Virus record (IMG/VR): IMGVR_UViG_3300032770_000017
Coordinates: 1-64,000 of that record
Reading direction: 5' to 3' (one strand)
From: a virus
DNA length: 64,000 bases
The position numbers and the translations under genes were made by a program. The notes beneath the pieces are model-generated. The model searched no databases. It worked only from the letters and a program-made list of their open reading frames with translations, and had not been told where the DNA came from. Below, in pieces: positions 21,519 to 60,808 of the stretch (position 1 is the stretch's first letter; the number at the start of each line of letters is the position of its first letter).

Positions 21519-23783
21519 GTGGACGCACTGCACATCAACCGATTCGCTGCGTTCGCCGCCGATGGCTCGATGACCAGCCTGGTGGCCGAGGGGCTGCCCG
21601 AATGGCCCACCGACGGCGCCCTCGGAGCGATCGCCGATGCCGACCTGTACGCGATGGAGCAGGCGTACCTCGCCGAGTTCGCCGCCATCGAAGCCGACCC
21701 GTCCCGCCCGGTGGGCGACGCCGTGGCCCTCGCCGAGCACGTTCGTGCCCTGCGCGACGAGGCCGAGCGCCGTATGGCCGCCGAGCCCGTCCCTGAGCCC
21801 ACGGCCGAGGAACTGGCCGCCCAGGCCGCAGCCGATGAGGCCGCGGCCGCGCTCGCCGCCGAGCGGGAGGCCCAACTGGCCGCCCTGCGCGCCGAGATCA
21901 CCCCCGAGCCCGGTGCGGGCGAGACCATCCCCGAGGGCACGGCGTTCAGCCGCGAAGACCTCGTGGCCGCCGTCACCGCCGGTGCCGAAGCCGCGGCACG
22001 GGCCATCGTGCCCGCCGTCACCGCTGCCATCGCCCAGGCTGCCCCGGTCACCGAGCCGGCCCCTGGCGTCACGATCACCCGCATGCGGGCCCGTGACCTC
22101 GGTGGCTATCGCCCCGACCACCTCGCCCCGGCGCCAGCCAACGGCGCCGAGCGCAGCCGGTTCACAGCCAAGGTCGTCTCAGCCACCGACTCGTCCGCGG
22201 TCGGCCTCGGCGGCGAGATCCAGACCATGGACCAGCTCGTGGACATCTTCACCGAGAAGGCTCTCGCCATCGGGCGGGCATCCGGTGTGGACAACGAGCA
22301 GGTCAAGTTGGCCTCGATCAAGCTCGACCGGGTGCCGCCGGAGATGGACCTGCGCGGTATCACCGACGGCCGGGAACTGCGCCGCAAGGTGCTGTCGGTC
22401 ATCGGCCCCGAGGCCGTTGGCGTCAACCCGTGGACCGGCCGTGAGGCCCCCATCGGGCGCGGCGGTGTCGTGCACGTCGGAGAGGGCCTGGTCGCATCCG
22501 GCGGGTTGGCCGCACCGGTCGAGCCGTACTACAACCAGCTCGTCATCGCCCAGGGCGCACGCCCTGTGCAGGCGGCGTTGCCGACCTTCGTGGCCGAACG
22601 AGGCGGGATCAAGCTCACGCTGCCTCCCTCCATCGGCACGATCGCGGCGGCCACCACGCCCGGGCAGTACACCGACGGTGTGACCAACACCGATACCTCG
22701 CTGGTGTCAGCCACGGCCACCTTCACCGCCGCCGATGCCGGCTCGTACATCTCCGGCTCGCCGACGATCTTCGCCGAGGGCACGATCATCGCCAGCGTCA
22801 CCAACTCGACGACGGTGGTCCTGTCGGCGGCCACGCTCACGACCACCACGGGCGTGACCTTCGTGATCCAGCGGCGCAACCCTTACAACCTCGGGCCTGC
22901 CGTTGGTGTCGTCACCGCCGCCCAGGACGCCGCAGGGCCGCCGAACGTGATCAAGTACACCTACGACGTGCCCGTCGGCACGCAGAACGAGTACGACGTC
23001 TATTCGGTCTACACGTCGCTGCAGTTCGGCAACCTGACCGGGCGCACCTTCCCCGAGCAGGTGGAGGCCAACATCCGCGTCGCCGACGCGCTGGCCGCCC
23101 GGACCGCGGACACGCAGATGCTGAACCTCATCAGCCTCTACTCGACGCTGTTCACCGGGGCCAAGACGTTCGGCACGGCACGCCAACTGCTCGCCCAGTT
23201 GGGCCACATGGGAGCGGTGTACCGCAACTCCGAGCGTATGGACCCGAGCGCCGTGCTGCGGGTGCTGCTGCCGGCGTGGGCGATCAACGCCATGCGGGGC
23301 GACTACATCGCCTCGTTCATCGGTGGCGGCGACGCCTGGGGCCTCTCCGACGACGAGATCGCCGGGTGGCTGGCCGACAACCACTTCATGCTCAGCCTCT
23401 ACCAGGACGGCCCGACGGACATCTCGCAGCTCTTCGTCACCACCGGCTTCTCGGGGGCGACGGGCAACGGGACCACGCTCGGGACGCCGATCGCCATCCC
23501 CGACTACCCGGGCACTGGCGCGACCACCTCGTTCCGCACGCAGGTGATCTCGTTCATGTGGGCCGAGGGGACGTGGCTCGGGCTGACCACCGGGGAACTG
23601 AATTTGGGCCTAGTTCGGGATAGCATACTCAATTCACAGAACCGATACCGTCAATTCTCTGAAGTGTGGGAGACTCCCGCTTTCGTGGGAACTCGCACGC
23701 TGCGGGGAGAGCACACGGTTGCGGCAGACGGCAGCTACGGCGCCGCCGTGTCGGTCACTCTTGGGGCCGGCAACGGGCTCTAG
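21519..23783 (+). CDS. Major capsid protein with N-terminal scaffold-like region and inserted Ser/Thr-rich domain
   Basis: GGAGG RBS before GTG 21519; LVASGG.AP.E.YY, RGGIK, LNLGLVRDS.LN..N.Y..FSE motifs; strong GC3. Confidence 0.85.
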   Translation: MDALHINRFAAFAADGSMTSLVAEGLPEWPTDGALGAIADADLYAMEQAYLAEFAAIEADPSRPVGDAVALAEHVRALRDEAERRMAAEPVPEPTAEELAAQAAADEAAAALAAEREAQLAALRAEITPEPGAGETIPEGTAFSREDLVAAVTAGAEAAARAIVPAVTAAIAQAAPVTEPAPGVTITRMRARDLGGYRPDHLAPAPANGAERSRFTAKVVSATDSSAVGLGGEIQTMDQLVDIFTEKALAIGRASGVDNEQVKLASIKLDRVPPEMDLRGITDGRELRRKVLSVIGPEAVGVNPWTGREAPIGRGGVVHVGEGLVASGGLAAPVEPYYNQLVIAQGARPVQAALPTFVAERGGIKLTLPPSIGTIAAATTPGQYTDGVTNTDTSLVSATATFTAADAGSYISGSPTIFAEGTIIASVTNSTTVVLSAATLTTTTGVTFVIQRRNPYNLGPAVGVVTAAQDAAGPPNVIKYTYDVPVGTQNEYDVYSVYTSLQFGNLTGRTFPEQVEANIRVADALAARTADTQMLNLISLYSTLFTGAKTFGTARQLLAQLGHMGAVYRNSERMDPSAVLRVLLPAWAINAMRGDYIASFIGGGDAWGLSDDEIAGWLADNHFMLSLYQDGPTDISQLFVTTGFSGATGNGTTLGTPIAIPDYPGTGATTSFRTQVISFMWAEGTWLGLTTGELNLGLVRDSILNSQNRYRQFSEVWETPAFVGTRTLRGEHTVAADGSYGAAVSVTLGAGNGL

Positions 23784-24628
23784 GAGTCGTCGCCTTGTCC
23801 CTTTCGCCTCGCTCGGCTCTCTGCGGCCTGCACCCGTCGGTACTCGCGCGCCTCATCGGGCGTCAGGTCACGGCTGCGTTTGCCGAAGAGGCGAAAGGCC
23901 AGCGTTCCTCGGTAGTACTCCTCGGTGGTCTCCCGGCCATCGAGGAGTCGCTGCCGGTCGCGCTGGGCTTGGGACTTGGCTCGGTCGAAGGTTCTTCTTT
24001 CCTCCGGCGTGAGGTCACGAAGCCGCTTGCCGAACATCTGCCAGGCGGGCGTCTCGTGCACCCATCGGGAACTGGAGCCCTGAACGCGCGGGCCATGTTG
24101 GAGGAATGCAGTGAGCAGTTCGTGCGCCCGTTCCTTGCGCCGGGCGCCAAGCCATGCCCAGAAAAGGCAGACGATGTGCTGGAACTCTTCGTGACTGCCG
24201 ACCTGCCAGATCAGGATCGGTTTGCGGCCACCGGGCCGTTCCTTCGGTCCAGTGATGCTGCCGACCTGCACGATGGCAGCGAAGCGCTCGACTACGTCGT
24301 AGTCGGTCATCGCCAGTGTCGCCGTTGGCCCACCGCGGCCAGGGCTCCTAGAGAAACATCCCTCTCCCTCGAAGAGCGCGGCCGCCCAAGCGATTTCGGC
24401 CGCGCTCGGCATCACGAAAGATGCTCGGATCTTTCGCACTGGGACCGGCTCCGGTTTGCGCCCGCGTTGCTTGACCACCAGGGGATCACCCCATCGGTGG
24501 TAGCGACGGGCATGCTTCCCGCAGAGCGGCTCGCCTTCGGCGCCGGTGCCGTTGGCTGCTCGTCCACAGACGACGCCATCCTCAATGACGGCGCAGGCCT
24601 TGCCGAGAACCTCGTTACGCTGACTCAT
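23780..24628 (-). CDS. LAGLIDADG-like homing endonuclease with N-terminal Cys/His motif
   Basis: GGAGG RBS before ATG 24628; EIAWAAALFEGEGCF helix, MTDYDVVERF. Confidence 0.8.
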   Translation of the reverse strand: MSQRNEVLGKACAVIEDGVVCGRAANGTGAEGEPLCGKHARRYHRWGDPLVVKQRGRKPEPVPVRKIRASFVMPSAAEIAWAAALFEGEGCFSRSPGRGGPTATLAMTDYDVVERFAAIVQVGSITGPKERPGGRKPILIWQVGSHEEFQHIVCLFWAWLGARRKERAHELLTAFLQHGPRVQGSSSRWVHETPAWQMFGKRLRDLTPEERRTFDRAKSQAQRDRQRLLDGRETTEEYYRGTLAFRLFGKRSRDLTPDEAREYRRVQAAESRARRKGQGDDS

Positions 24629-24698
24629 GTCGGACCTCCTCACAGGTTCGGCCGGGGCCGGGGGTGCGCAAACACCGCCCGGCCCTCCCATTATAGCA
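24629..24698 (-). promoter_or_regulatory. Promoter plus conserved two-hairpin leader (copy B)
   Basis: TGCTATAAT; GGGCCGGG-C-GGTG/CACC-CCCGGCCC; CGAACCT/AGGTCCG over GGAGG. Confidence 0.75.
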
Positions 24699-24714
24699 AG
24701 TGTAGGAGACGGCC

Positions 24715-26097
24715 ATGAGCGGGCCGACCATGTCGAGCGTCGTTGGGGTCGATTACACCCTGGACCCGGGACCGCCGCTCAAACTGCCGCCCCTCTCGTT
24801 GCTGTCGTTGGCATCGCCGTTGGTGGACATCGACGACCTGATTGGGCAGCAGCAGCAGGCGGCCGAGATGGTCCTGTCGGCACAAAGCGACCTGAGCGCC
24901 CTCGAAGCGCCCATGGATGCCGACGAGTCGATCGACACGCTGGAGCGCCAGCAGGCCACAGAGGCCGCGCAGAACCGCGTCCAGGAGGGCGAGGCGTGGC
25001 TGTCGGCGGTCAACAAGCGCCTGGCCGAGGTGCAGCGCTGGGAGCACGGGTTCCAGTACCTGCCCGAGTTATCCCAGTCGGCTGGCATGTCGATCTTCGC
25101 CCCCGACGGCGACCCGGCCATCACCAACCCCACCGTCGGCGCGATCAAGACGGTCGGGCCCAATCAGACGGCGTTCGCGTGGTACGACCCCTTCCAGGTG
25201 GTCGCCCTTGATTCGCGGTCGCTGTTCGGCTGGCCCAACACCGACTTCGCCTCACGGTCGCGCCGTGCCCTGCGGGCGCTGCAGAACCACGAGTCGTGGG
25301 ACGTGGAGCAGGAGTTCTGGAGCGGGAGCAGCATCCCGACGAACTACCACCTCTCCGCATCGCCCAGCACGCCGACCACATCACCGCACCGCACGGTCAC
25401 GGGTTGGCCCAACCCCACCGCCGCGTCAGGGACCACGCTTGGGACCGCGGTCGGGCTCGGTGCGTCGTTGGCCGCGCTTGACCAGTCAATCGCAGACGCA
25501 GACGCGGGCACCGGTGTCATCCACGCCACGCCGTACCTCGTGCAGCGCTGGGCGTCGGTGTACTCGTACCTGCGGGACTCCGACGGCCACGTCTACACGG
25601 TCAACCACAACCTGATCCTGGCGGGCTACGGCTACCCGGGCACCGGTCCCGACGTGGCCTCGCGCACGGTCACAGACGGTGTGCTGGCGTCGACCACCAC
25701 CGTCACGAGCGCCACCGCCAACTTCACGAACTTCGACATCGGCTCATCCATCTCCGCTGCCGACGGAAAGATCCCGGCTGGCGCCTACATCGTGAGCGTC
25801 ACCAACTCCACAACCGTGATCATCTCGGCCGCGGCCACGGCATCGGAGTCCGGGGTCACGATCACCATCGGCGCGTCGCAGGCCCACATCGGCGGCAACC
25901 GCTACCAGTGGGCCTACGCGACCGACTGGCTCTACACCTGCGCAGGCGCGGCCCAGATCTACCCGTGGGACTTCCGCCAGGGCTCACCCGACGTGCCACT
26001 CGACAACCTCGCCGAGATCCGCGTGGAGCGGAGCTGGGCCGTGCTTACGAACCAGTTGCTCAGAGCCGCCGTCCTCGTCGACACCGGCACGGCATAG
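24715..26097 (+). CDS. Capsid-associated structural protein with inserted Ser/Thr-rich domain
   Basis: Position between MCP and tail tube; PFQV, E..VEQEFW, GVIHA, GYPGTGP motifs. Confidence 0.7.
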   Translation: MSGPTMSSVVGVDYTLDPGPPLKLPPLSLLSLASPLVDIDDLIGQQQQAAEMVLSAQSDLSALEAPMDADESIDTLERQQATEAAQNRVQEGEAWLSAVNKRLAEVQRWEHGFQYLPELSQSAGMSIFAPDGDPAITNPTVGAIKTVGPNQTAFAWYDPFQVVALDSRSLFGWPNTDFASRSRRALRALQNHESWDVEQEFWSGSSIPTNYHLSASPSTPTTSPHRTVTGWPNPTAASGTTLGTAVGLGASLAALDQSIADADAGTGVIHATPYLVQRWASVYSYLRDSDGHVYTVNHNLILAGYGYPGTGPDVASRTVTDGVLASTTTVTSATANFTNFDIGSSISAADGKIPAGAYIVSVTNSTTVIISAAATASESGVTITIGASQAHIGGNRYQWAYATDWLYTCAGAAQIYPWDFRQGSPDVPLDNLAEIRVERSWAVLTNQLLRAAVLVDTGTA

Positions 26098-26109: not shown

Positions 26110-27057
26110 ATGGCCAACGCTGGCGCAATCCCGATCCAAGGGTGCGCGATCGCCATCACGCAACTGCAGGCCAATGGCACCCCCGTCATCGGCTCGACGA
26201 GCTACGTGCAGGACGACAAGCCGTTCCTGAAGTTCACCGCCAAGCCGGTGATGGAGGAAGGCGTCGAGATCACGCCCAAGAGCGCATGCGGCGTGCCGAT
26301 CATCTCCTACAAGGACTTCAACTACTACAAGCGCTGGGATGTCACGCTCGACCTCGCCGACTTCGACCTGGACAAGATGTCCATTCTCGGCAACGGCACG
26401 CTGCTCACCGCCGGCTCGTCGTCGGGGCGCACCTTCACTGATGGCGTGGTCGTTACCAACTCGACGACCATCACGTCGGCCTCGTCGGCGTCCTTCGTGT
26501 CCACCGACGTGGGCCGCACGATCACCGGTGCCGATGTGCCAGCGAACACCTACATCACAGAGATCCTCGGCACGACTGGCGCGGTGATGAGCGCGGCGGC
26601 GACCGGTTCGACCGGTCCGGGGTCCTACACACTCGGCACGCTCGCTGCCCGCTCGATCGGCTACCAGTGGCCGCAGCTCATCTGCACGCCCAACACCAAC
26701 GGCGTCTCAATCGAAATCTGGATGAAGGCGATCGTGCGCTGCACCGGCTACCAGGGCACCACGCCCTACCCGAGCGCCGGTGGCACCCCGACCGGCCTCC
26801 CGTCCTCGGCATGGATCCGCTTCGGCGCCTTCCGGTGCTTCATGTACCACGCCGATATCGACATCGAGGACAAGGAATTCACCAACATGTTCACGGGGTG
26901 GGCGATCGAGAACCCGCTCTTCGGCACCGGACCGCGCAACGACTGGACGACCTCGGGCGTCTCGGGCGGCACGGCCGTGGACACCACCAAGGTCTTCGAC
27001 GCGATGTTCGATTTCCAACTCCCGTCCCCGCTCCAGGCCGGGTTCCAGGTCCCGTAG
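26110..27057 (+). CDS. Major tail (tube) protein
   Basis: QGCAI.ITQL..NG.P, EEG.EI..KSACG and IGY..P...GVSIEIW motifs of actinophage tail tubes. Confidence 0.8.
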   Translation: MANAGAIPIQGCAIAITQLQANGTPVIGSTSYVQDDKPFLKFTAKPVMEEGVEITPKSACGVPIISYKDFNYYKRWDVTLDLADFDLDKMSILGNGTLLTAGSSSGRTFTDGVVVTNSTTITSASSASFVSTDVGRTITGADVPANTYITEILGTTGAVMSAAATGSTGPGSYTLGTLAARSIGYQWPQLICTPNTNGVSIEIWMKAIVRCTGYQGTTPYPSAGGTPTGLPSSAWIRFGAFRCFMYHADIDIEDKEFTNMFTGWAIENPLFGTGPRNDWTTSGVSGGTAVDTTKVFDAMFDFQLPSPLQAGFQVP

Positions 27058-27066: not shown

Positions 27067-27549
<483 letters not shown>

Positions 27550-27574: not shown

Positions 27575-28240
27575 GTGCGCCTTGTCTACGTCTCCCTCGT
27601 CGCTGACGCCGAGCGGTACGCGTCGGTGGCGGGGGCGCACATCCCCGAGCACGCCACCGCCGTCACGGTTGAAGGCGCGGCCTCTGCGGCGAGCGGGCTG
27701 AACCCGGTCCTCGAACGCTACGCGGCCGACCCATCGGTGGACGGCCTGGTGGTGCTGCACGAGGACGTGATCATCCGTGATCCCGAGTTCGAGCCGATGA
27801 TCGGAGCGCACCTGCGCGAGCAACGGGTGGGCCTGATCGGCGTGATCGGCGCCGTGCGGCCACCCGGGCTCAACTGGTGGGACGCCGCGGTCAAGCGGGG
27901 CGCGGTAGACGAGACACGAGGACGCATTGACTTCGGCTGGGGCGACGCCGATGTGGACGTGTGCGACGGGCTGCTCCACGTCATCGGCCGTCGAGCCCTT
28001 GACGCCGGCATCCGTTACGACGAGTGCTACGACGCCTTCCACGGCTACGACTTGGACCTGTGCCTGCAGGTGAGGGCGGCCGGGCTGCGGGTGGTCGTGG
28101 CGCCAGTGTGGGTGGACCACCGCACCCGTGGCGGCTATGGCGACGTGGACGCCTATCTGCGCGCCGATGCCCGGTTCCGCGCCAAGTGGTCAGGAACGGT
28201 GCGCGGCGACGCCGATGTTGGCGAGCAGGTGCGGCGGTAG
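27575..28240 (+). CDS. GT-A glycosyltransferase (Glyco_tranf_2_5-like)
   Basis: LHEDV, GLIGVIG, VDVCDGLL, FHGYDLDLCLQ. Confidence 0.8.
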   Translation: MRLVYVSLVADAERYASVAGAHIPEHATAVTVEGAASAASGLNPVLERYAADPSVDGLVVLHEDVIIRDPEFEPMIGAHLREQRVGLIGVIGAVRPPGLNWWDAAVKRGAVDETRGRIDFGWGDADVDVCDGLLHVIGRRALDAGIRYDECYDAFHGYDLDLCLQVRAAGLRVVVAPVWVDHRTRGGYGDVDAYLRADARFRAKWSGTVRGDADVGEQVRR

Positions 28241-28906
28241 CTCCTCGGAGATGGCGCTCAACGCGTCGATCAGCCGCGGGTCCCATTCGAGCATCATCGA
28301 ATTCGGCACGACCTTGAGGAAGTAGCCGAAGCATCGCCCAAGCCGGAACCCCGCGGTCCATAGATCGGCATGTAGCTCGTCGCGCGTGTAGACCCGCCGA
28401 TGGCCTACGAGCCTGTCCCGGTCCGAGAGTGTGTCGAGACGTGGCTGCAAGCCCATCCTCACCGCCAGGCGCCGGTGCAGTGATTCGGCGTTGGGGACAA
28501 CGACCACGATGGTCCCGTATGGCTTCAGCCACGAACGCACGGCCTGCAGCATCGTGATCGGGTGCTCGACGTGCTCCAGCACATGCAGGCAGAGCACGCC
28601 GTCATAGGGCTCGGCCGGGGTGAAGTCCTCGAACAGGGAGTGGTGCACGACGAGCCCGGGATGGCGCTCGGCCGCCTCAGCGCACAGCGCCTCCGACCCT
28701 TCGACCACCTCCACGCTGAGGCCTCGCTCGATCAACGCGGCAGTGACCGCTCCGGTGCCGTAGCCCATCTCCAGCACCCGCTCTGCTGGCCTGAGGGCGT
28801 CGAGCACCGTGGGCAGGCTGGCGAGCTGCATGGACTCCTCAATAGCGATGTCCGGCACTGACGTGTTGAGGTAGTACCCACGGGCGAAGTCGTCGAGATC
28901 GGTCAT
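28190..28906 (-). CDS. Class I SAM-dependent methyltransferase
   Basis: VLEMGYGTG, HVLEHV, VVVPNAESLHR; ATG 28906 overlaps upstream stop. Confidence 0.88.
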   Translation of the reverse strand: MTDLDDFARGYYLNTSVPDIAIEESMQLASLPTVLDALRPAERVLEMGYGTGAVTAALIERGLSVEVVEGSEALCAEAAERHPGLVVHHSLFEDFTPAEPYDGVLCLHVLEHVEHPITMLQAVRSWLKPYGTIVVVVPNAESLHRRLAVRMGLQPRLDTLSDRDRLVGHRRVYTRDELHADLWTAGFRLGRCFGYFLKVVPNSMMLEWDPRLIDALSAISEELPPHLLANIGVAAHRS

Positions 28907-30207
28907 ACCTGCTCCGCTGCCCACAGGCCCTGGGCGACCTGCTCGTTGAGGCTGTCGGCGCCGAACGCCATGGCCCCGCCGATCACGGTCACATCCTCCA
29001 GGATCGGCATGGCTTCGGTGCGGGCGGCGGCGAAGCGGCAGCGGTTGCCGGCTGTGGGCGCGGCGAAACCGGGGGCGTGCATCTCGTGCACCGGCCCCAG
29101 GCAGGCCCGCTCGCGCACGATGCCCAGTCGCTCCAGATCGGCCTGGGCGTGGGCCAGCCGTGCGCCTTCGATGCTGATCAGCCGTTCGTCCTCGTGGGCG
29201 CCTCCGTCGTTGACCCGGAAGGCGGTCACGGAAGGATCGGGCACCATCACGGTTGAGGGCAGCGAGAGGATGTCGCGCTCGGCCACCGACACCCAACAGA
29301 CCGTCAGCGGCACCCGCTCCAATCGCATGGGCGTGCCGGCAGCGGTGAACAGCGTCTCCGGGCCGAAGCCGATCACCGAGCCTTCTGGCAGGCGCACCTC
29401 TAGACGCCTCTGCCGGGCTTCCTCGAAGCGGAGAAATCCACGATCGAGCATGACGAGCGGTGGCGTCCTGATGACCTCTGCACGGCTCTGGAGCCGATCC
29501 AGCAGGCGCTTGACCACGCCATCGCCCTTGACGGTGTGGAACGGGCGCCGCGGTCGATAGGTGACGGCGTTGTTCGATGCCGCTTCCCAGACCGTCTCGC
29601 TGTGGAACAGCGGCATCCACAACTTGCGGCGCATGGTGGCAAGTACGCCCTCGGAACCCCAGCGATAGACCTTCAGACAGAACGGCTCTATGAGCAGCTC
29701 GTGGAACGTCGGACCATGCTGGCTAAGGGACGCCGCTGCCAGGGACCGACCCCAGAGATCGGCAAGGGTGCGGCCACTGTCGGCTTCTTTGGCGATGAGC
29801 CTGGCCTGCTCATCGGTGAGCGCCCCCCGCAGGCGGGTGAGGTCCACGGTGAGGTAGATGTCGGGCGCGCGCCGGCCGTTGACGAACATCTCCGGGCGTC
29901 CGGCTTCTACAAGGTCATCGCCGAGCAGGGAACGGTAGAAGGCCCGGACGTGGGCGATGTGGGGACGGTGACCGCTCATGCCCGGCACATAGGCCGAGAT
30001 GGGCGGTTCGTCGGGTGCCTCCTCGGGCCCGTAGGAGGTCTCCAACAGGCGCAGCCCGAACTGCAGGTCCCACGGCCCGAGGCGCATGGGCTCGAAGCCA
30101 CCGCCAATGCCACGCTCCGGCAGGTAGAGCGTGACGGGCTCGCCCCGTTCTGCGAGCGCGTCGGCTGCCACCAGGGCGGCCACGGTGTCACCGGCGACGA
30201 TGGTCAT
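28903..30207 (-). CDS. Putative FAD/NAD-dependent oxidoreductase-like protein
   Basis: N-terminal degenerate Rossmann IVAGDTVAALVAA..L...G..V.L....IGGGF; LIEPFC.K. Confidence 0.6.
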   Translation of the reverse strand: MTIVAGDTVAALVAADALAERGEPVTLYLPERGIGGGFEPMRLGPWDLQFGLRLLETSYGPEEAPDEPPISAYVPGMSGHRPHIAHVRAFYRSLLGDDLVEAGRPEMFVNGRRAPDIYLTVDLTRLRGALTDEQARLIAKEADSGRTLADLWGRSLAAASLSQHGPTFHELLIEPFCLKVYRWGSEGVLATMRRKLWMPLFHSETVWEAASNNAVTYRPRRPFHTVKGDGVVKRLLDRLQSRAEVIRTPPLVMLDRGFLRFEEARQRRLEVRLPEGSVIGFGPETLFTAAGTPMRLERVPLTVCWVSVAERDILSLPSTVMVPDPSVTAFRVNDGGAHEDERLISIEGARLAHAQADLERLGIVRERACLGPVHEMHAPGFAAPTAGNRCRFAAARTEAMPILEDVTVIGGAMAFGADSLNEQVAQGLWAAEQV

Positions 30208-30893
30208 GCCCGGAAGGTCAGGTAGTTCACGGCGCAGTTGTCGGGGAAGCGGTGGGCGACCAGGCGGAAGCCTTCGAGCACTTCGACGGGCAGTCTGGCC
30301 ATCTCGTCGTTGGGCAACGGCTTGAACACGATGCCCTGGCGTCCGATGAGGCTGAACCCCGCATTCACGGCCAGCGCCTCCAGTTCAAAGGCGGTGTAGA
30401 GCCGGACCGTTCCCCATTGCCGACCGCGCTCGCTCACCTCAGAGCAGTCGCAGATCAGCCCGAGGTCCAAGGCGACGAGGCGATGCACCGATTCCGGGTT
30501 CTGCGAGGCGAGGTGCAGCATCCCGTCGTGGCGCAGCAGGTGATGGCAGTGGCGCAGGAACTGGCCGGGGTGCTCCAGTTCGTGGATCACGTTGGTCACC
30601 ACGACGTGGTCATACGGCACGCCGCTGCGGAAATGGGAGACGTTGTCCTGGACGAACGAGGCACTGATCAGGTGCCGCGCTCGGGCCCGGGCCAGGTAGG
30701 CCTCCGAGCGGTCGACGCCGACCACGGTGGCCCCGGCCGCGACGAACAGCGACGACATGAGCCCCGTGGCGCAGCCCATCTCCAGCACGCGGTCACGCGG
30801 CCCGAGGTGCTCAGCGATGGCCTCACCGGTGGCGATGGTGTAGAAGCGGTCGAAGTCGGTATCGGGGTCGTAGGAGTCCGAATAGTCCGTCAT
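30204..30893 (-). CDS. Class I SAM-dependent methyltransferase (paralog of 28190..28906)
   Basis: VLEMGCATG, NVIHELEHP, NPESVHR, KPLPN. Confidence 0.88.
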   Translation of the reverse strand: MTDYSDSYDPDTDFDRFYTIATGEAIAEHLGPRDRVLEMGCATGLMSSLFVAAGATVVGVDRSEAYLARARARHLISASFVQDNVSHFRSGVPYDHVVVTNVIHELEHPGQFLRHCHHLLRHDGMLHLASQNPESVHRLVALDLGLICDCSEVSERGRQWGTVRLYTAFELEALAVNAGFSLIGRQGIVFKPLPNDEMARLPVEVLEGFRLVAHRFPDNCAVNYLTFRA

Positions 30894-31297
30894 GGCCGAT
30901 CCCCGCTGGGTAAACCGAGAGCGAACTTCGTCACGCCGTCATACTTCGTCTTGGACCGGCCGCCCAATGGGTTGCGTGTCTCGCCGTCATAACTGTGGAA
31001 CGCCTCTTCGCCCTGCATCTGAAAATCAATCGGCAGACCGGTGACATGACGGCCCCACAGGCTGATAGCCACATTCAGCGTATAAACGGCGAATGGCGAC
31101 ATCACGTCCTCTGCCCAAGGCAAGAGCATGCGCACGTCAACGTCACGCCAATCGCCACCGCGCTCGACGGAACCGACGAGGTAGGGCGTCTGCTCGAAGG
31201 CATCACGAAGCTGGCGACCCCACTGATCGAGCACAAACAACTCCGCAGGACTAAGGGTCGTACCTCGGCGTCTCGCCGTGCTAGCGGGATCCGTCAT
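30890..31297 (-). CDS. Small nucleotidyltransferase-fold protein
   Basis: YLVGS....WRDVDVR and GLPIDFQ motifs (GS..DxD..D). Confidence 0.65.
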   Translation of the reverse strand: MTDPASTARRRGTTLSPAELFVLDQWGRQLRDAFEQTPYLVGSVERGGDWRDVDVRMLLPWAEDVMSPFAVYTLNVAISLWGRHVTGLPIDFQMQGEEAFHSYDGETRNPLGGRSKTKYDGVTKFALGLPSGDRP

Positions 31298-32220: not shown

Positions 32221-32247
32221 GCTCCGTAATCCTAACCTCTGTTGCCT

Positions 32248-36916: not shown

Positions 36917-36982
36917 CCGTCTCCGGGCGCGTCCCGTGCCCTATCATCCCGACGATGGCCGACGGCGTAGGAGGCTGAACAG

Positions 36983-37642: not shown

Positions 37643-37647
37643 GATGA

Positions 37648-45957: not shown

Positions 45958-46047
45958 GACCAGATCCTAAGGTTCCGAAAGCGTGGCGGCGAAATGACAA
46001 CGTTTGGGCACCCACGGAAGGCGGCCGAGGTGCCACGCTCGGGGCCG

Positions 46048-53205: not shown

Positions 53206-54026
53206 CACAGAACGTTCTGACGAGCCTCTTGATCCGATGGGCCGGCGGGTTCACCTCGGTCGATGATGCCGATGGGATCGCGTCGTTCGGCGTGATCGAA
53301 GGGTTCCTGTCGCTCGGCAACGTCATCGACGAGGCCACGGCCATCACGTTGGGGAACGCAGTGCTCGCCGATCAGGCATCAGTGCAGCTCACGCAGACGG
53401 GCACCATTCAGCCCGCAGGGAGTAGCGATACGCCGTATGTCGGTTTCAACGTGGGCGATGTCGTCACTGCGCCCGACCTCTGTCTCGAAGAGGACGTGTT
53501 CCGCGTCCAGACGATCCAGGTGCAGGAGGACCAGGAGGGCAACCCGATCTACCCGGTGCAGGTCGGCACGCAGCAACAGATCCGAGACGTGCGCATCCAA
53601 TCGTGGCTGCAGCGGATGAACGCCGGCACGCTGGCGGGTACTGCGCAGTCGGCCGCCCCGGCTTCCGGTTCCACACCGCCTGCGGCCACCACGCAGGGGA
53701 TCCAGAACGTCTGGCATATGCCGGGCTCGCTCACGGTGATGACCTCCGACGATTGGTCGCCGCCGCGCTCGGGGACGATGATCCGCCTCGACCTGCGCCT
53801 CACCACGGCCGGGTCAACGGCGACCACGGTCATCCTGTCGATCAACCACACCACGGTGATCGGGTCGAGCACGATTGCCGCTGGCCAGAACATCCCGACG
53901 ACGCCCTTGCTGCTTGACACGCCCGTACTCGGTGTGGGTACGCCGAACGCGACGATCATCAACCTCTACGTGATGACGGCGGGGACTGGCGCGGCCGGGC
54001 TGGTGATGACGCTCACCATTCTCTAA
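53202..54026 (+). CDS. Minor tail protein (possible ATA start)
   Basis: PYVGFNVGD.V motif; GGAGG 8 nt before ATA 53202; alternative GTG 53178. Confidence 0.65.
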   Translation: MAQNVLTSLLIRWAGGFTSVDDADGIASFGVIEGFLSLGNVIDEATAITLGNAVLADQASVQLTQTGTIQPAGSSDTPYVGFNVGDVVTAPDLCLEEDVFRVQTIQVQEDQEGNPIYPVQVGTQQQIRDVRIQSWLQRMNAGTLAGTAQSAAPASGSTPPAATTQGIQNVWHMPGSLTVMTSDDWSPPRSGTMIRLDLRLTTAGSTATTVILSINHTTVIGSSTIAAGQNIPTTPLLLDTPVLGVGTPNATIINLYVMTAGTGAAGLVMTLTIL

Positions 54027-56242
54027 TGACGGCGAACTCGGAAATCTATGCATCACCGGATGGTGTCACTTGGACGTTGATGGCTGGCCCTGGCGATAGC
54101 GGAGGACTTGCACTTACCTCGATCGCATGGGACCCCTCATCTGGGGTGTTCACCACAAGCGGGTCGAATAACGTTTACTCAACCGATGGTGTGACCTGGA
54201 CGCTGGTCAGCAACGTGACCAGCCTCTCAAATGTTACGCAGCGTGTGACCTACTCACCGTTGTTCGGGCTTCTCGTTGCGAACAACAACGGCACCGGTGG
54301 CATCACGCCGATGATCGCCACAACATCGGATGGCCACACGACGACATCGCGTGCCCACTACACGGGCGGATCGACGGGAAGCCACACCTTCCGAGACTCG
54401 GTGGACAACGGGTCGATCCTCTGCACAGTTGGGCGGAACCAAACCGGCCTCACCGGGCCAGTGCAAATCAGCGGCTTGGGAACGGTCTACACCGTATCGG
54501 TGGCCACGGGGACGTGGACCGCCAACACGACCAATTCCCCCTTCGGTGCGAACTCCGTCACGAACTCGCCCTTCGGTGACTACACGGCCTCTGCACCGGG
54601 CTCGATCCAGGCGCTCGGTACGGCCATTGGGTGCGACGGGACCACGTTCGCCGCGGCAGGGACCGTCAATGCCAGCAATGGCAGCCGCACCGGTCTCGGG
54701 TTCATCTATACAACGAGCCCCTCCGGATCATGGTCAGCAGGGACCTCTCCCTGGGACTCAAGCACGGTCGCCGTCGTCAACCGTATCGCCTGGGGATCGG
54801 GCGCCGGATGGGTAGCTGTCGGGACGAACGGGCTAACGGGCGCGTCATGCAAAGTCTTATTGACCTCATCGGACGGGCACACATGGACGCAGCAGTCGAC
54901 TCCGATCGATGGCAGCACCAGCGCCGTGCTGAAGGATGTCGTCTGGTCGTCTGCCCTCAGCCTATGGACAGTCGTTGGCAGCGATGGTGCGGGTGACGCA
55001 GTCGTCCTGACATCGCCTGACGGCGCGACTTGGACACGGCGGGACAACGGCGACTCTGGGGTCTGGAACGGGATTGCCTGGTCATCGTCCCTAGGTTTAT
55101 TGGTCGCCGTCGGTCATGTCCTCATTCCTACTGGGCCAGCAATCTGGACGAGCCCTGACGGTTCCACATGGACACAGCGGAGCACGCCCGCCGGTTGGGC
55201 CACCACCGGTGCCGGTGTCACGGTGGAATGGGCGAACTACACCAACGGCAGCGGGACGGTGCAAGAGTTCGTCGCGGCTGCCACGACGACGAGCACGACG
55301 ACCGGCCTCCACCTTGCTCGCAGCACTGATGGCATCAACTGGACCGATGTAACAGGACCACCGACCACGGACAACCCCCAGGCCATCGGCGTGCCCTCCC
55401 CTGGGCTCAGCCTTGGCTCGGCCTTAGCACTTATCACAGATTTCAGCCTGTCAGGTCCCCTCACGATTTACGGCAGTAATGATGGGGTGACCCTGACGTT
55501 GTATTCGGCCACTGATGCCCATGGGCTGATAGCAACCGCCGCGGCCGGACTGATCTATTCGACAATTTCGGGCAAGTGGGTGTTCTCCTCTAATGGCAGT
55601 AATGTGGTCGCGACATCACCTGATGGGCTCACCTGGACGAGCGCCAACCTGACCGGGCTCCTCCAGTTCACGCACTTCAACGCGCTGGCAACGGACGGTT
55701 CCACCTACGTCGTCGGCATGGGCCAGACATCGGGAGGCGGGTCAAACTCGGCGACCGGTTATTCGACCGATGGCGGTGTGACGTGGAATTCGACCAATGA
55801 CTTCGGCCTCAGTGACGTGTGGCATGACTGCGCGTATTGCGGTGGGACCATCGGGTTCGTTGGCGTCGGGACAGCGAACCTGTCTGGCGTCGTTGCTGCC
55901 ACGCTCACCGGAGCAGGTGGCGCAACGTGGTCGGCGCACAATCTGAGCGCCACGTTCGGGAACATCATCGCGCTGGACTATGCGCCCTCGCTCGCGAAGA
56001 TCGTCATGTTGGGCAAGGCGCCCCCGGAGTCCTCCGCGGCCGGCAACCGTGTCGGGACGAGCACCAACGGCACAACCGCCTCAGTCACCGGTTTCGAGAC
56101 AGCCAACCCGTATGCCACCGTCTATGACGTTGCCTGGTCGCCTCAGCTCGGTCTGTTCGTCATCGTCGGATCAGGACCGCCAGCCCCGGCGCCCTCTGTT
56201 CCTTCTTTCATCGTCGGTGAGATCCGTATGCAGGCGGCTTAG
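54026..56242 (+). CDS. Asp-box/BNR repeat beta-propeller fibre or receptor-binding protein
   Basis: Many S.DG.TW repeats; Ser/Thr/Gly-rich; lower GC3. Confidence 0.8.
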   Translation: MTANSEIYASPDGVTWTLMAGPGDSGGLALTSIAWDPSSGVFTTSGSNNVYSTDGVTWTLVSNVTSLSNVTQRVTYSPLFGLLVANNNGTGGITPMIATTSDGHTTTSRAHYTGGSTGSHTFRDSVDNGSILCTVGRNQTGLTGPVQISGLGTVYTVSVATGTWTANTTNSPFGANSVTNSPFGDYTASAPGSIQALGTAIGCDGTTFAAAGTVNASNGSRTGLGFIYTTSPSGSWSAGTSPWDSSTVAVVNRIAWGSGAGWVAVGTNGLTGASCKVLLTSSDGHTWTQQSTPIDGSTSAVLKDVVWSSALSLWTVVGSDGAGDAVVLTSPDGATWTRRDNGDSGVWNGIAWSSSLGLLVAVGHVLIPTGPAIWTSPDGSTWTQRSTPAGWATTGAGVTVEWANYTNGSGTVQEFVAAATTTSTTTGLHLARSTDGINWTDVTGPPTTDNPQAIGVPSPGLSLGSALALITDFSLSGPLTIYGSNDGVTLTLYSATDAHGLIATAAAGLIYSTISGKWVFSSNGSNVVATSPDGLTWTSANLTGLLQFTHFNALATDGSTYVVGMGQTSGGGSNSATGYSTDGGVTWNSTNDFGLSDVWHDCAYCGGTIGFVGVGTANLSGVVAATLTGAGGATWSAHNLSATFGNIIALDYAPSLAKIVMLGKAPPESSAAGNRVGTSTNGTTASVTGFETANPYATVYDVAWSPQLGLFVIVGSGPPAPAPSVPSFIVGEIRMQAA

Positions 56243-56253
56243 GATCACTGGAC

Positions 56254-57054
56254 GTGACCGAGACGTGGATGCCCGGGGTGACCATTGAGCGCGGCCCATT
56301 CGACAACGGCGCCCATGGTGGCCCAGTGACGGCCCACAACGGCATCGTCGAGCACGTCACCACCAACTGGGCCGACCCGGGCCCGTACTTCTCCCAGCCG
56401 ATCAATCAGGCCTCGTCGCATTTCTGGCTGCGCCAGAACGGGGAGATCGTGCAGTTCCTGCCGCTCGAAGTGGCCTCATGGGCACAGGCCGCCGGCAATT
56501 ACTCCTACGTGAGCGTGGAGACCGACGGCGTACCTGAGGTGGCGCTATCGGATGCCCAGGTGCTGGCCTTTGCCGCCGTCTACCGGTTCGTGGAAACCGC
56601 GGCCGGGCTCGGTGGGTTCGGTTACCGCGTGGCCGAGGTGCCAGGGCAGCCCGGGCTCGGCTGGCACGGCATGGGCGGCGCAGCGTGGGGTGGCCACCTT
56701 CAGTGCCCTGGGGACGTCAGGAAGGCCCAGCGGGGCGCCATCCTGTATCTCGCCGGCGGTGCGGCCCCCGCCGTGACGGTGCCGCCGGCGATCTACCCGT
56801 CGCCCACCCTGACGGCGCCGCTGGTGGACTGGCACATGACCGGGTTCTTCCCGGCCGGCGCGTTGCTGCTCACCCAGGACGGCGCGATCTGGACCTTGGG
56901 CAATGCCCAGTACGCCGGAGGCGCCAACACCCTGCCCGCCTTCGCCGGGCGCACAGCGGCCCGGTTCGGCGCGCTCACCGATGCCGAGGTGGCGGCCAAG
57001 AAGCTGTACGTTGTCCTTGACACGGTCGCGGAACGGTACGCTTTCCCTGCCTGA
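56254..57054 (+). CDS. Endolysin, N-acetylmuramoyl-L-alanine amidase
   Basis: EHVT, ASSHF, SWAQAAGN..VSVET, H..CPG zinc amidase motifs. Confidence 0.85.
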   Translation: MTETWMPGVTIERGPFDNGAHGGPVTAHNGIVEHVTTNWADPGPYFSQPINQASSHFWLRQNGEIVQFLPLEVASWAQAAGNYSYVSVETDGVPEVALSDAQVLAFAAVYRFVETAAGLGGFGYRVAEVPGQPGLGWHGMGGAAWGGHLQCPGDVRKAQRGAILYLAGGAAPAVTVPPAIYPSPTLTAPLVDWHMTGFFPAGALLLTQDGAIWTLGNAQYAGGANTLPAFAGRTAARFGALTDAEVAAKKLYVVLDTVAERYAFPA

Positions 57055-57100
57055 CGCCATTCCGCGCGCGGAGAGGGACGGTCAGTAGGGTTAGCCCGCA

Positions 57101-57319
57101 ATGGCCTACGTCCCGTCCCTTGAGGAGCGTAGGGCGGATTTCTGCTTCCTCGTCCGTTCCGTCTTGCCGCGATCCATGGCTGACGCCGTCACCGACCGTG
57201 ATATCGACGAGGCGCTCGACGAGGCGCTGTGGGGCGTCCCCTTTGAGCGGGTCGCCACCGATCGGCTGGGCCCGCTCGCCGATGTGATCGCCGTGCGGCT
57301 GCGGGTGAGGTTGGGGTGA
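57101..57319 (+). CDS. Hypothetical protein
   Basis: Coupled ORF. Confidence 0.5.
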   Translation: MAYVPSLEERRADFCFLVRSVLPRSMADAVTDRDIDEALDEALWGVPFERVATDRLGPLADVIAVRLRVRLG

Positions 57320-57615
57320 TCGCGCTCGTCGCCCAGGTGGGCTCGGCGAGTTATGACCCCCTCGGCATCGGGGTCGTGGGCGTGCTGTTCGTCTCGTTCG
57401 TCGGGTTCTGGTTAGGGGGCAAGATCATTTCGGGTAGGGAGTACGAGCGTGTGCTCCAGATCAACGACAAACTGTCAGCCGATAACGACCGCCTGCGGGA
57501 ACGGTTGATCGACTCGGCAGACAGACGCGAGGAGAACGCCACGGCGCTGAGAGAGACAGCGGCTGTGCTCAGGGACGTGCTGGTCGTGCTGGAGGTCAAA
57601 AGGCAGGCGGGATGA
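57316..57615 (+). CDS. Membrane protein with coiled coil (lysis cassette)
   Basis: One TM plus coiled coil after endolysin. Confidence 0.6.
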   Translation: MIALVAQVGSASYDPLGIGVVGVLFVSFVGFWLGGKIISGREYERVLQINDKLSADNDRLRERLIDSADRREENATALRETAAVLRDVLVVLEVKRQAG

Positions 57616-57806
57616 GCCTGCGCCGCCACCGGGAACCGCAGCCACCACGGGAGATCGAGCACGTCATCGATCGTGACGAGCGCGCCATCCGCGCCCAGGA
57701 GACGGCAGCCGCGCTGATGCACAACGCGCTCGAAGAGGTGCGCAGGGCGATCGAAGACCTGCAGCAGGAGCAAGGAGAGCGCCGCAATGGCACCACCCCT
57801 GAGTGA
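57612..57806 (+). CDS. Hypothetical coiled-coil protein
   Basis: ATGA overlap. Confidence 0.5.
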   Translation: MSLRRHREPQPPREIEHVIDRDERAIRAQETAAALMHNALEEVRRAIEDLQQEQGERRNGTTPE

Positions 57807-58221
57807 CATCCCCGAACTGATCGAACGGATCAACGCCGCCATCGCAGAGTCAGAACAGGCACGGGCGGCCAGTGACCGGGCCACGGAGGAACTGGCCTCG
57901 GAACGCCGCTGGCGGCGGTGGGCGGCCGTGTTCGCCGTCGTCCTGGCCGTGGTGATCATCGCCGTGGGCGTGGTCGGCGTCGTGATGATGGTGAGCGTGC
58001 GGGCCACCCAACGCGACAACCACCGGACGCTGATCGCGATCCAACAGGCCACGACGCCCTCATCTGCGCAGGTGAACACCGCGCAGTCACTGATCACGCG
58101 GGTCGTCAACGAGCCCAACTGCGGGCTACGCGAGGACATCGCGCAGGTCGTGCACCTTGCCGTGCCCTCAGTGCCCGCTGCATTGCCCGCTACGGCGTTC
58201 TGCCCGGCATTCACCCCTTGA
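57787..58221 (+). CDS. Single-TM membrane protein (lysis cassette)
   Basis: AGGAG RBS; TM helix. Confidence 0.6.
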   Translation: MAPPLSDIPELIERINAAIAESEQARAASDRATEELASERRWRRWAAVFAVVLAVVIIAVGVVGVVMMVSVRATQRDNHRTLIAIQQATTPSSAQVNTAQSLITRVVNEPNCGLREDIAQVVHLAVPSVPAALPATAFCPAFTP

Positions 58222-58258
58222 CGGGTGGGCGCGCCCCGAATGGGGTACAGATGGCTCT

Positions 58259-58444
58259 ATGGCAGCAATCCTGTTCCTGTTGGCGTTCATCCTGGCGGCC
58301 ATCCACTGGGGCGGCGGTACCCTGCTCGGCCACCATTACCTTGACGCCTTCTTCACCCTCCTGGCCGCCGGCCTATTCCTGATGGCCATGGGCTGGGGCG
58401 CCATCCCGGTGGCCTTCACCGTGAGACGCCCACCGCCCGGCTAA
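58259..58444 (+). CDS. Small two-TM protein
   Basis: MAAILFLLAFILAAI...; hydrophobic. Confidence 0.55.
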   Translation: MAAILFLLAFILAAIHWGGGTLLGHHYLDAFFTLLAAGLFLMAMGWGAIPVAFTVRRPPPG

Positions 58445-58483
58445 CCGCCGCGGCGCAGATGGCATGGCGTACCATCCGGTGCC

Positions 58484-59599
58484 ATGCCGACCGCTGGCCT
58501 ACGGGGCCGCCTTCCCAAGCGCGAGGGAGCCGACAAGCTCCCCCTGCGCTGGGCCCATGAGTACCTGACCGTTCCCCTTCCGGTGCCGAACTACCCGGTG
58601 GACGTGTCGGGCGGCCTCAAGGATTGGGGCATGCTCGGCAACGACACCTACGGCGACTGCGGGGAGGCTGGGCAACTCCACGTCCAAATGGCCACGGCCA
58701 TCGGCGCCGGGGTGCCGACGCCGCAGTTCAGCACCGAGCAGGCGGTGAACGAGTACCTCGCCTACACCGGCGGCCAGGACTCGGGCGTGGTGCTCGCCGA
58801 CTTCCTGCTCTGGCTCTACAAGAAGGGCGAGATCCTGGCCTTCGCGCCGGTGGACCACGCCAGCCGCGCCAACTGCGACGGGCTCATGGAGATGGGCCAC
58901 GGGCTGTACTGCGGCGTCAACCTCACCGATCAGGACGAGGCCGATTTCGGCGTCCGCCCGTGGGGATCGGAAGGCGACCCGAAGCCGGACAGTGCATTGG
59001 GCCATTGCATTGTGAAAATTGGCGCCGATGGGGCCGAGCAGGACGCATGGGTGACCTGGGGCGCCGTGCAGCTATCGACCACAGCGTGGACCGCGGCCTG
59101 CCTTGACGAGTCGTGGCTCATAGTTACGACCCAAGAGCAGCTCGCTAAGTTCGAGCCGTCGCTGCTCGGCGACATTCAAGCGCTCGGCGGCACCGGGGGC
59201 GAGACCGTCCCTCCCGCTCCGGTGCCGCCGGCACCCGAGCCTCCCCCCACGCCTGAGCCTCCTCCGGCTCCCGAACCGCCCCCAGAGCCGGCACCGCCGC
59301 CCGACCCAAGCCTGCTCGAACGCATCGAGGAGGAGATCGACGCGGTCATCGAGGACGTGGAGAAGATCGCCAAGGATGTGGAGCACTACATCGTCGGCGA
59401 GCCCGTCCCCGCCTTCGGGCCCGGCACCGCTCAGCGCCATATCGACTCAGTGACCGAGCCCGGCCACACGGTCGTGCACGAGGTGGCCGGGTCGGTCGAA
59501 CAGGACAACGTCAGCGGCGCCCAGGCCACCGTGCGGCGCGATCTGGACGGCAATGTGGTGAACGAGTCCATCCGTCCCGTCCCGGGCGCCGAGGGCTAG
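58484..59599 (+). CDS. Papain-like Cys/His peptidase-fold protein
   Basis: MLGND.YGDCGEA, GHCI, VTWG; Pro-rich linker. Confidence 0.65.
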   Translation: MPTAGLRGRLPKREGADKLPLRWAHEYLTVPLPVPNYPVDVSGGLKDWGMLGNDTYGDCGEAGQLHVQMATAIGAGVPTPQFSTEQAVNEYLAYTGGQDSGVVLADFLLWLYKKGEILAFAPVDHASRANCDGLMEMGHGLYCGVNLTDQDEADFGVRPWGSEGDPKPDSALGHCIVKIGADGAEQDAWVTWGAVQLSTTAWTAACLDESWLIVTTQEQLAKFEPSLLGDIQALGGTGGETVPPAPVPPAPEPPPTPEPPPAPEPPPEPAPPPDPSLLERIEEEIDAVIEDVEKIAKDVEHYIVGEPVPAFGPGTAQRHIDSVTEPGHTVVHEVAGSVEQDNVSGAQATVRRDLDGNVVNESIRPVPGAEG

Positions 59600-59602
59600 G
59601 CC

Positions 59603-59893
59603 GTGTTCAGCATCGCCTGGCTGAAGAACGCTGTGCACGTCGTCGTGCTGACCTTCGTTGCCGGTTTCGTCGGCGTGGTGTCGGCAGCGGGCGCCAACGT
59701 GCTCTCTCTGGCCACGGCCAAGGCGGCGGCGACTGCGGGCCTGATCGCAGCGGCGGCGGCCCTACAGGCCCTCCTGGCGCCTCTGATCAGCGTCCCGAGC
59801 GACAACCCGACGGCGTCGATCTTCTCGGCCATGCGGACCCGGATCGGCAACGGCGCGCCGACGGCGGGGCGCCACTTCGCTACGAGCGAGTAG
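59603..59893 (+). CDS. Holin-like membrane protein
   Basis: Two TM segments; W.K.A...V.TF start resembling r1t-type holins. Confidence 0.6.
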   Translation: MFSIAWLKNAVHVVVLTFVAGFVGVVSAAGANVLSLATAKAAATAGLIAAAAALQALLAPLISVPSDNPTASIFSAMRTRIGNGAPTAGRHFATSE

Positions 59894-59897
59894 CCCT

Positions 59898-60275
59898 ATG
59901 TGGCCGTTCGATCACCCGTTCAGCGCTTACACCTGGCCGGGGCCGTTCGGGTGGTTCGCCCGGGAGTGCCCGGGCAACATCGTCGCCGGCTTCGCCCAGG
60001 GGGCCATCGCCGCCGTAGTCGCCATGCTGCTCTGGCCGCCGACACGCCACGCCATCCACCGCTTCGTCGATGAGAAGCTCAAGCCGGTGCACGAGCACTT
60101 CGCCCGCCAGTCCGAGCACAACCGGTGGATGGCCGAGCACATGGCGCGCGTCCACCTGGCGGCGACGGGTGAGCATGCCGCCGATCACCCCGAGCACGGC
60201 GCGCTGACACACCCCGAGCCGACGCCGCCACGGTCCCACCACAAGAAGCAGGCAGTGGGCGGTGATGCGGCATGA
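59898..60275 (+). CDS. Membrane protein with His-rich tail
   Basis: GNIVA + TM. Confidence 0.55.
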   Translation: MWPFDHPFSAYTWPGPFGWFARECPGNIVAGFAQGAIAAVVAMLLWPPTRHAIHRFVDEKLKPVHEHFARQSEHNRWMAEHMARVHLAATGEHAADHPEHGALTHPEPTPPRSHHKKQAVGGDAA

Positions 60276-60808
60276 GCTTCACCCCGATCGTGCTCACCGG
60301 TCAGTGGCAGAAGCCCGACGGCTCACCGGCGGCGGGGTCGGTGGTGGCGAGCCTCACTGAGGGTCTGGTGAACACCTCGCAGCCAGCGGCGCAGATCGTC
60401 AACTTCGCCTATCTGGACGCCAACGGCAACCTGGCCATGCCCGTCTACGCGGACAACGACACTGGCACCAATCCCGTCGGTTCGCAGTACTACTGCACCG
60501 TCACCATCATCGGGTCGCCGCGCACAGCGGGCTACATCGTTGTGCCCGCGGTGCCAGCAGGATCGCGTTCCGTAACTGACGCCGTGATCGCCGAAAGCTC
60601 CACCACACTCACCAGCGCCACCGCTTCGTTCACTGGCGCGGATGTGGGGAAGTTCGTCTACTCGCCGGATCTGGTCGTCGGCACCGCGATCGCCAGCGTG
60701 ACGAACTCGACCACCGTGGTGGTGAGCCTGCCGGCCCTCGCGTCGGGCACGGGCCAGACGCTGCTCATCGGCGCCAGCGCGAGCCTGCCGGCGCTACTCG
60801 CGGCCTAG
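60272..60808 (+). CDS. Virion-type protein carrying the shared Ser/Thr-rich domain
   Basis: G....PDG.PA.G.V...LDANG...N.D....P.G..Y head; C-terminal shared domain. Confidence 0.7.
   Translation: MSFTPIVLTGQWQKPDGSPAAGSVVASLTEGLVNTSQPAAQIVNFAYLDANGNLAMPVYADNDTGTNPVGSQYYCTVTIIGSPRTAGYIVVPAVPAGSRSVTDAVIAESSTTLTSATASFTGADVGKFVYSPDLVVGTAIASVTNSTTVVVSLPALASGTGQTLLIGASASLPALLAA

Follow-up and report, generated by a model that had tools for sequence, protein, structure and literature searches.

A 64,000-nucleotide stretch of virus DNA, the first 64 kb of the 80,207-bp IMG/VR record IMGVR_UViG_3300032770_000017 (CheckV completeness 100%; hereafter the window), encodes the same domain of ~72 amino acids (aa) in four different proteins: the major capsid protein, the protein encoded next to it, the tail tube protein, and a small protein encoded downstream of the lysis genes. 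Our reading, to which we give a probability of about 0.55, is that this domain is an accessory module that has been shuffled between proteins and faces outward; it would act as a decoration protein incorporated in the major virion subunits themselves, with a job resembling that of the immunoglobulin-like (Ig-like) domains of other phages. The reading is built on homology, fold, clean insertions, recurrence in unrelated capsid and tube families as well as in cellular surface proteins, and variable copy number, all of which our analysis establishes.

The four copies lie on the + strand at positions 22656-22886 (copy 1), 25654-25884 (copy 2), 26419-26649 (copy 3) and 60557-60790 (copy 4), and translation of the four open reading frames (ORFs) places every one of them within a few codons of where a preliminary description, made from the letters alone, had put it. 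A hidden Markov model (HMM) profile of the four copies, searched against a six-frame translation of the window, returned these four only, with E-values of 1e-30, 7.5e-33, 6e-32 and 6e-35 from copy 1 to copy 4 and a next best match at E = 0.66; the entire genome holds exactly four, at E = 1e-31 to 1e-35. The copies can be aligned over ~76 columns, 11 of which are invariant, and share 26-52% pairwise identity as protein and 45-55% as DNA. The repeat is real, far beyond chance, and old, since identities this low are those of ancient copies and not of recent repeats. In a tree of domain sequences, indicative only because the alignment is short, copies group by host protein and not by genome, so each insertion appears to be old and to have been inherited vertically with its host gene. 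Recent duplication or gene conversion, considered as a source of the copies, was rejected in view of the DNA identity and of this grouping. Serine and threonine make up 32-36% of the domain versus 12-17% of the remainder of each host protein, yet the domain is more than a biased composition, as its confident models and its superposition on a solved structure indicate. An N-glycosylation sequon was also considered as a feature of the domain and discarded: N-S-T is found in three of the four window copies, but its Asn is not conserved across hosts.

In the AlphaFold (AF2) models of two host proteins, capsid and tube, the domain folds into six beta strands that form a compact unit, at predicted local distance difference test (pLDDT) values of 90-97. 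Searching the sequences of the PDB with the four-copy profile (hmmsearch) retrieved a decoration protein, 8eci_1, at E = 3.4e-8, with profile positions 2-68 on chain residues 8-72, and the profile of the capsid-adjacent protein family reached the same 8ECI decoration protein at E = 2.3e-9. At the structural level, the tube copy (model residues 103-180) superposes on 8ECI with a VIA-align Z of 12.2 and a root-mean-square deviation (rmsd) of 1.4 Å over 74 residues that are 49% identical, while Foldseek gives E = 2.3e-5 and an rmsd of 1.7 Å. 8ECI comes from Arthrobacter phage Bridgette, in which dimers of gp7 bind the capsid exterior around the pentons, at the five-fold vertices (bioRxiv 10.1101/2022.09.09.507160); a later paper presents gp7 as a cement protein whose dimers bridge two peripentonal hexons (PMC13033339). 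Judged by profile and model, the domain is thus an autonomous six-stranded beta-barrel of ~72 residues, of which the N-terminal domain of gp7 is the sole solved family member. Both cases concern virion-surface proteins of actinobacterial phages, and the homology covers the N-terminal ~70 residues of gp7. However, gp7 is a separate protein of 126 aa that sits as dimers around pentons only, whereas the window domain is found inside the capsid, capsid-adjacent and tube polypeptides and would therefore be on every subunit. Weaker structural matches (VIA-align Z 5.5-6.8) were found to a small barrel of lambda gpJ (residues 490-566), to the C-terminal domains of two tailspike depolymerases, to tail-tip proteins of Chi, R4C and LME-1, and to an insertion in the capsid protein of Vibrio phage VP1; these may reflect a common arrangement only.

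The preliminary description had claimed that in the first three proteins the domain is an internal insertion between conserved family motifs, and had proposed aligning each host protein with homologues that lack it. Done for all three, the alignment bears the claim out, as homologues without the domain lack it exactly at the junctions. The major capsid protein (21519-23783, +) has 754 aa as called in databases, the longest ORF starting at 21378, and matches the major head protein family phrog_777 at E = 7.7e-39. Its N-terminal part is helical and scaffold-like, and residues ~331-735 form the HK97-fold core, with spine helix and A and P domains. The AF2 model of the protein (pLDDT 78.7) matches HK97-fold structures in Foldseek at E = 1e-7 and probability 1.00, and VIA-align brings it onto HK97 gp5, Che8 and encapsulins at Z 14.0-15.1, with residues 331-734 on HK97 gp5 116-383. 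Copy 1 occupies residues ~383-451 of the 754-aa form, where it is modelled at pLDDT 95-97, and is flanked by the conserved motifs RGGI..PP and AVG..TAAQDA. In 11 aligned capsid homologues that lack the insert, RGGIR..PP runs straight into AVG..TAAQDA, with the gap exactly at the domain. Among 120 capsid homologues, 43 have the domain and 77 do not.

The alignment ranges and the secondary structure make the capsid insertion site probably the E-loop region: HK97 residue 116 corresponds to about model residue 331, the spine helix is at 512-541, and the domain at 383-451 falls between a short strand pair (356-367) and the strands at 489-503, which is the expected place of the E-loop hairpin. The E-loop lies on the exterior of the capsid. 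A second site exists in the same family, because a related capsid protein of 643 aa on an 81.8-kb contig (P0196) has no E-loop insertion and carries the domain in a long loop of the A-domain region, between the equivalents of window capsid residues 644 and 659, which points to an independent insertion event. The putative E-loop also holds K479, which together with N708 and E715 (754-aa numbering; codons 22953-22955, 23640-23642 and 23661-23663) is invariant in 77 aligned homologues. The Asn and Glu are spaced by 7, as are N356 and E363 of HK97, and fall within one residue of them under the structural alignment offset. This trio, which resembles the HK97 cross-link residues K169/N356/E363 in spacing and approximate position, suggests that capsid proteins of this family form an isopeptide cross-link of the HK97 type.

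The tail tube (major tail) protein (26110-27057, +; 315 aa) matches phrog_792 at E = 4.9e-6. Its gene adjoins the capsid genes, and ~16 kb containing a glycosylation island and several large ORFs separate it from the adaptor, the chaperone-like ORFs and the tape measure gene; phage DSL-LC01 has the same order of capsid gene, intervening gene, tube gene and adaptor, without the island. Despite the location beside the capsid genes, the tube label given in the preliminary description holds by structural match. The AF2 model (pLDDT 84.6; predicted TM-score, pTM, 0.74) finds the tail tube proteins of JBD30, YSD1, Chi and Mystique in Foldseek at E = 3e-9 to 3e-7, and VIA-align gives Z of 10.4 and 9.2 for its best matches and 6-8 for many others, including Hcp and SPP1, as expected of a siphovirus-type tube fold. 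Copy 3 is placed between residues ~100 and ~176, after a single helix and one strand. It is absent, with a junction of 0-3 residues and both flanks aligned, in the tube homologues of DSL-LC01, Mimi (gp83) and Phendrix (gp76), and the major tail proteins of Microbacterium phages that lack it match the window protein in two pieces flanking the insert.

The capsid-adjacent protein (24715-26097, +; 460 aa), encoded next to the capsid gene, belongs to phrog_779 (function unknown; E = 3e-8). Copy 2 directly follows its conserved motif GYGYPGTGPD, and without the domain the protein is colinear with its homologues in DSL-LC01, Mimi and Phendrix, the break lying right after the conserved GTGPD. The domain is present in 64/67 orthologues. 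The ESM Atlas model of this protein has as nearest clusters some that are automatically named major capsid protein, with template modeling (TM) scores of 0.81-0.82 normalised by the hit; PF13252 capsid clusters follow at TM 0.48/0.55, and all feature matches that bear a family name are to capsid families. A profile-profile comparison with the capsid family (hhalign) gave a probability of 0.5%, and a Pfam search over 37 members returned no capsid family. The protein is possibly a second HK97-fold capsid protein occupying vertices, a reading that we treat as a lead since the fold comes from the ESM Atlas and was confirmed by neither profile-profile nor Pfam comparison. The capsid gene of cultured relatives is annotated as a major capsid hexamer protein, which would fit a separate vertex protein.

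The fourth host (60272-60808, +; 178 aa), encoded downstream of the lysis genes and endolysin, consists of ~95 N-terminal aa of unknown kind followed by copy 4 at the C-terminus. The protein has no match in Pfam, PHROG or NCBIfam, and its N-terminal half has no relative among the collected proteins or in the window, nor did scanning viral contigs with a pattern bring one up. G003, a complete related phage, encodes an orthologue made of the same two parts (34% identity over 176 aa, E = 9e-20). A tblastn search of phages with this protein, the capsid-adjacent protein and the isolated domain returned no match, the low-complexity filter probably masking the domain. The preliminary description had grouped the four hosts as virion-type proteins; this is right for the capsid protein, by its HK97 fold, and for the tail tube; the 60272 protein is at most a possible virion protein.

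Two of the hosts, both of them proteins that are built in hundreds of copies, are what the preliminary description took them to be, the capsid protein by its HK97 fold at Z 14-15 and the tube protein by its best Foldseek match at E = 3e-9. As each subunit of both bears the domain, it would amount to a built-in decoration displayed hundreds of times per particle. It very likely faces outward, because gp7 is external, because the modelled capsid insertion falls at the E-loop, and because a folded unit of 72 residues would be excluded from the tube lumen and from the interfaces between rings.

The domain extends far beyond this phage. Searched exhaustively with the profile, 1.84 billion representative proteins yielded at least 2,377 representative clusters at E ≤ 1e-3, 727 of them at E ≤ 1e-10; a single protein can have as many as 9-14 copies, and these are often in tandem. 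No Pfam, NCBIfam or PHROG model covers it, a Pfam search at E ≤ 1 giving only a weak match to DUF6299 (E = 0.038). The domain is internal in PF18906 tail tube proteins, at about residues 163-233 of ~384, and in PF05065 HK97-family capsid proteins; its other partners are PF13472 SGNH esterases, PF12708 pectate-lyase-like proteins and TIG domains. Actinobacterial surface proteins belong to the family too; named members are large SBBP/TIG proteins from Acidimicrobiales and one protein from Micromonosporaceae. Copy number also varies among relatives: there are one or two per protein in orthologues of the tube and capsid-adjacent proteins, and two complete close relatives, G001 and G003, have four and five copies in total. 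In G003 (36000-46000) and G001 (54000-62000), the domain occurs near the C-terminus of proteins of 684 and 927 aa whose N-terminal parts resemble tail or tail-tip proteins and which have no BLAST counterpart in the window save the domain itself. In some tube orthologues (P0292, P0311-P0340; ~385-398 aa) and capsid-adjacent orthologues (P0369 and P0380; 539 aa), a full domain seems nested within the halves of another copy, with profile matches such as 1-49, 3-76 and 48-76, a pattern that either a domain-in-domain insertion or a strand-swapped tandem could produce.

We propose that three proteins of this phage lineage acquired the domain by separate, ancient splicing events, the capsid protein in a surface loop (probably the E-loop), the capsid-adjacent protein, and the tube on its outer face, and that the small 60272 protein gained it by fusion. 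Once displayed, the domain would make weak, multivalent contacts with polymers of the cell envelope or with other surfaces and so help adsorption, bracing between neighbouring subunits being a possible second function. Multivalent weak adhesion seems the most likely function because the distribution of the family, in enzymes acting on envelope polymers, tailspike-like proteins, tandem surface arrays and unrelated capsid and tube families, mirrors that of the Ig-like domains of phages. The latter are usually explained as adhering weakly to polymers of the cell surface. Ig-like domains are said to have been described in tailed phages by Fraser et al. in 2006, reportedly in T4 Hoc, the C-terminus of lambda gpV, and T5 pb6 and pb10. 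Both are small beta domains that turn up on capsid, tube and fibre proteins alike and in varying copy number, as promiscuous additions that the core fold does not need, and both recur in bacterial surface proteins. The two differ in that no Ig-type Pfam family (Big_2, I-set or FN3) matches the window domain, a six-stranded barrel nearest to gp7, and in that it is inserted into internal loops and not added at termini. Several points weigh against this proposal. We know of no binding activity for any member of the family, and conserved aromatic residues are few, 3-5 per copy, unlike in typical carbohydrate-binding modules. The outward orientation is a deduction, drawn from the insertion sites, from steric exclusion from the tube lumen and from gp7. 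That gp7, the single characterised relative, has been assigned a cementing role favours bracing over adhesion, and the very high Ser/Thr content next to a glycosyltransferase island leaves room for glycosylation.

The last two points correspond to alternatives that deserve to be weighed. In one, the domain would be a built-in cement: domains of neighbouring subunits would pair like gp7 dimers, brace the contacts between capsomers and between rings, and replace a separate decoration protein. The sole characterised relative is indeed a dimer bridging two hexons around the penton, and the E-loop region, to which the capsid insertion probably maps, reaches toward neighbouring subunits. But the same domain is found in tailspike-like enzymes, esterases and tandem bacterial surface arrays, where bracing makes no sense; its copy number differs among orthologues, 77 of the 120 capsid homologues do without it, and the invariant Lys/Asn/Glu trio with HK97 cross-link spacing means that the capsid family probably has a covalent stabiliser of its own. 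We therefore consider a primarily cementing role rather unlikely, and rank bracing, as suggested by analogy with gp7, second to adhesion. The preliminary description had suggested two other roles, both drawn from the genes that follow the tube. Docking of two mini-collagens, which would form bristles over head and tail, is the weaker of them. These ORFs (27067-27306 and 27319-27549, +; 79 and 76 aa; PF01391 Collagen, E = 6.7e-7) share a head of ~38 aa (66% identical) followed by Gly-X-Thr repeats. They adjoin the tube gene, and the head is also found in the domain-bearing close relatives G002 and G001, twice in the latter, once right after the tube gene and once inside a 273-aa ORF. Yet it was not detected in G003, a complete, terminally repeated relative with five copies of the domain, so that an obligatory partnership is unlikely. 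G004, G023 and ten other domain-bearing records are negative for the head or not expected to carry it, and the collagen head is much more narrowly distributed than the domain family. Taken together, these data make a docking role very improbable.

The other suggested role was that of glycan acceptor, the Ser/Thr-rich domain being decorated by the phage's own glycosyltransferases so as to coat head, vertices and tail. The locus invoked for this is real, with phage-encoded glycosyltransferases near structural genes. The island (27575-36916, strand not assigned, delimited by Pfam and PHROG matches) starts ~500 nt after the tube gene and comprises a GT2-like protein (27575-28240; PF13712/PF13641), a FemAB/GNAT-like, acyltransferase-like protein (31294-32352, -), an aminotransferase (32661-33746) and a 1057-aa protein with several GT2 domains and TPR (33743-36916; PF00535 x2). 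Besides this proximity, the relative G003 has a GT2 gene next to its tube gene, the Ser/Thr enrichment of the domain over its hosts is strong, and 81% of capsid copies have N-x-S/T motifs. There is precedent as well, since mycobacteriophages reportedly attach glycans to their capsid as well as to their tail tube subunits (Freeman et al. 2023, as cited in PMC12619734). Nevertheless, the correlation between domain and glycosyltransferases proposed in the preliminary description as a check, run as co-occurrence with PF00535, gave no sign of the two travelling together. In 31 viral records of at least 40 kb with a related capsid protein, PF00535 was found in 3/5 with the domain and 12/26 without, and in ten domain-bearing records of other lineages it was found in 1/10. 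Over this test of a single family in records of which many are incomplete, GT2 is no commoner with the domain (4/15) than without it (12/26). G035, which is 100% complete, has the domain and no GT2. Conversely, Gordonia phage Phendrix has two glycosyltransferases within its structural module and the domain nowhere in its genome. Moreover, many cellular proteins and enzymes contain the domain, the family as a whole does not conserve the Asn of the N-S-T motif, with 0% in tube copies at that column, and the mycobacteriophage glycans that PMC12619734 recounts are on C-terminal tails and not on a folded internal domain. As a general role of the domain, acceptance of glycans is thus doubtful. In this particular phage, glycosylation of the domain is possible, a live minority reading given the Ser/Thr composition and the glycosyltransferase neighbours. 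Its boldest form, a portable glycosylation tag in which, thanks to one acceptor module shared by hexon, vertex protein and tube, the phage could cover its entire particle with the product of a single sugar pathway of its own, is more doubtful still; if true, it would be a modular strategy of virion glyco-shielding not described for any phage. Che8, Corndog and Myrna, whose virion glycosylation is attributed to Freeman et al. 2023 by the papers that cite it, are similar in having phage glycosyltransferases in or near the structural genes and both capsid and tube as targets. They differ in that, as those citing papers tell it, the glycans are at the C-termini of subunits, and here the co-occurrence of domain and GT2 is not beyond chance in the records tested.

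Returning to the accessory module that we favour, promiscuous accessory domains on phage particles are already known as a kind. Extra folded domains spliced into a loop of the HK97 fold also have precedents, such as the I-domain of P22, the insertion domain of T4 gp24 and residues 62-148 of the VP1 capsid protein, the last of which matches our domain weakly (Z 5.6, rmsd 3.1 Å over 73 aa, 7% identity). Each of these is nevertheless specific to one capsid lineage, while the window domain is mobile, occurs also in tubes and enzymes, and uses two sites within one capsid family. What is new is a large family without a database name, anchored to one structure whose authors did not describe a mobile module. 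New, too, are the insertion of the domain into internal loops of an HK97 capsid protein as well as of a tube protein, and the fact that a single phage has it in three or four different proteins. Adsorption, stability and immune recognition are all affected by accessory domains at the phage surface, which are also preferred sites for display and engineering. The insertion sites tolerated in nature, two in the HK97 capsid and one in the tail tube, could guide the display of cargo on actinophage particles, and the domain also lends itself to a clean test of whether a folded module is what phage glycosyltransferases act on.

The window has a G+C content of 66.9% and the genes of a tailed phage around the hosts of the domain: a portal protein (5965-8022), a large MuF/protease-like protein (14643-17186), a head-tail adaptor (43360-44208) and a tape measure protein (46662-49307), in addition to tail proteins and an endolysin. 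A megablast search with the capsid-tube region found no match among 50,697 phage records, and the nearest cultured phages, with a capsid identity of only ~31%, infect Gordonia, Arthrobacter, Microbacterium and an actinomycete, which makes an actinobacterium the probable host. An ORF of 350 aa (23666-24718), located between the capsid and capsid-adjacent genes, has no PHROG match and occupies a position that is empty in the cultured relatives. Another Ser/Thr-rich protein, of 219 aa (36983-37642), is encoded in the window; it does not carry the repeated domain, matches phrog_644 (unknown function) at E = 6e-12 and the head-decoration family phrog_20658 weakly (E = 9e-6), and may be a separate decoration protein.

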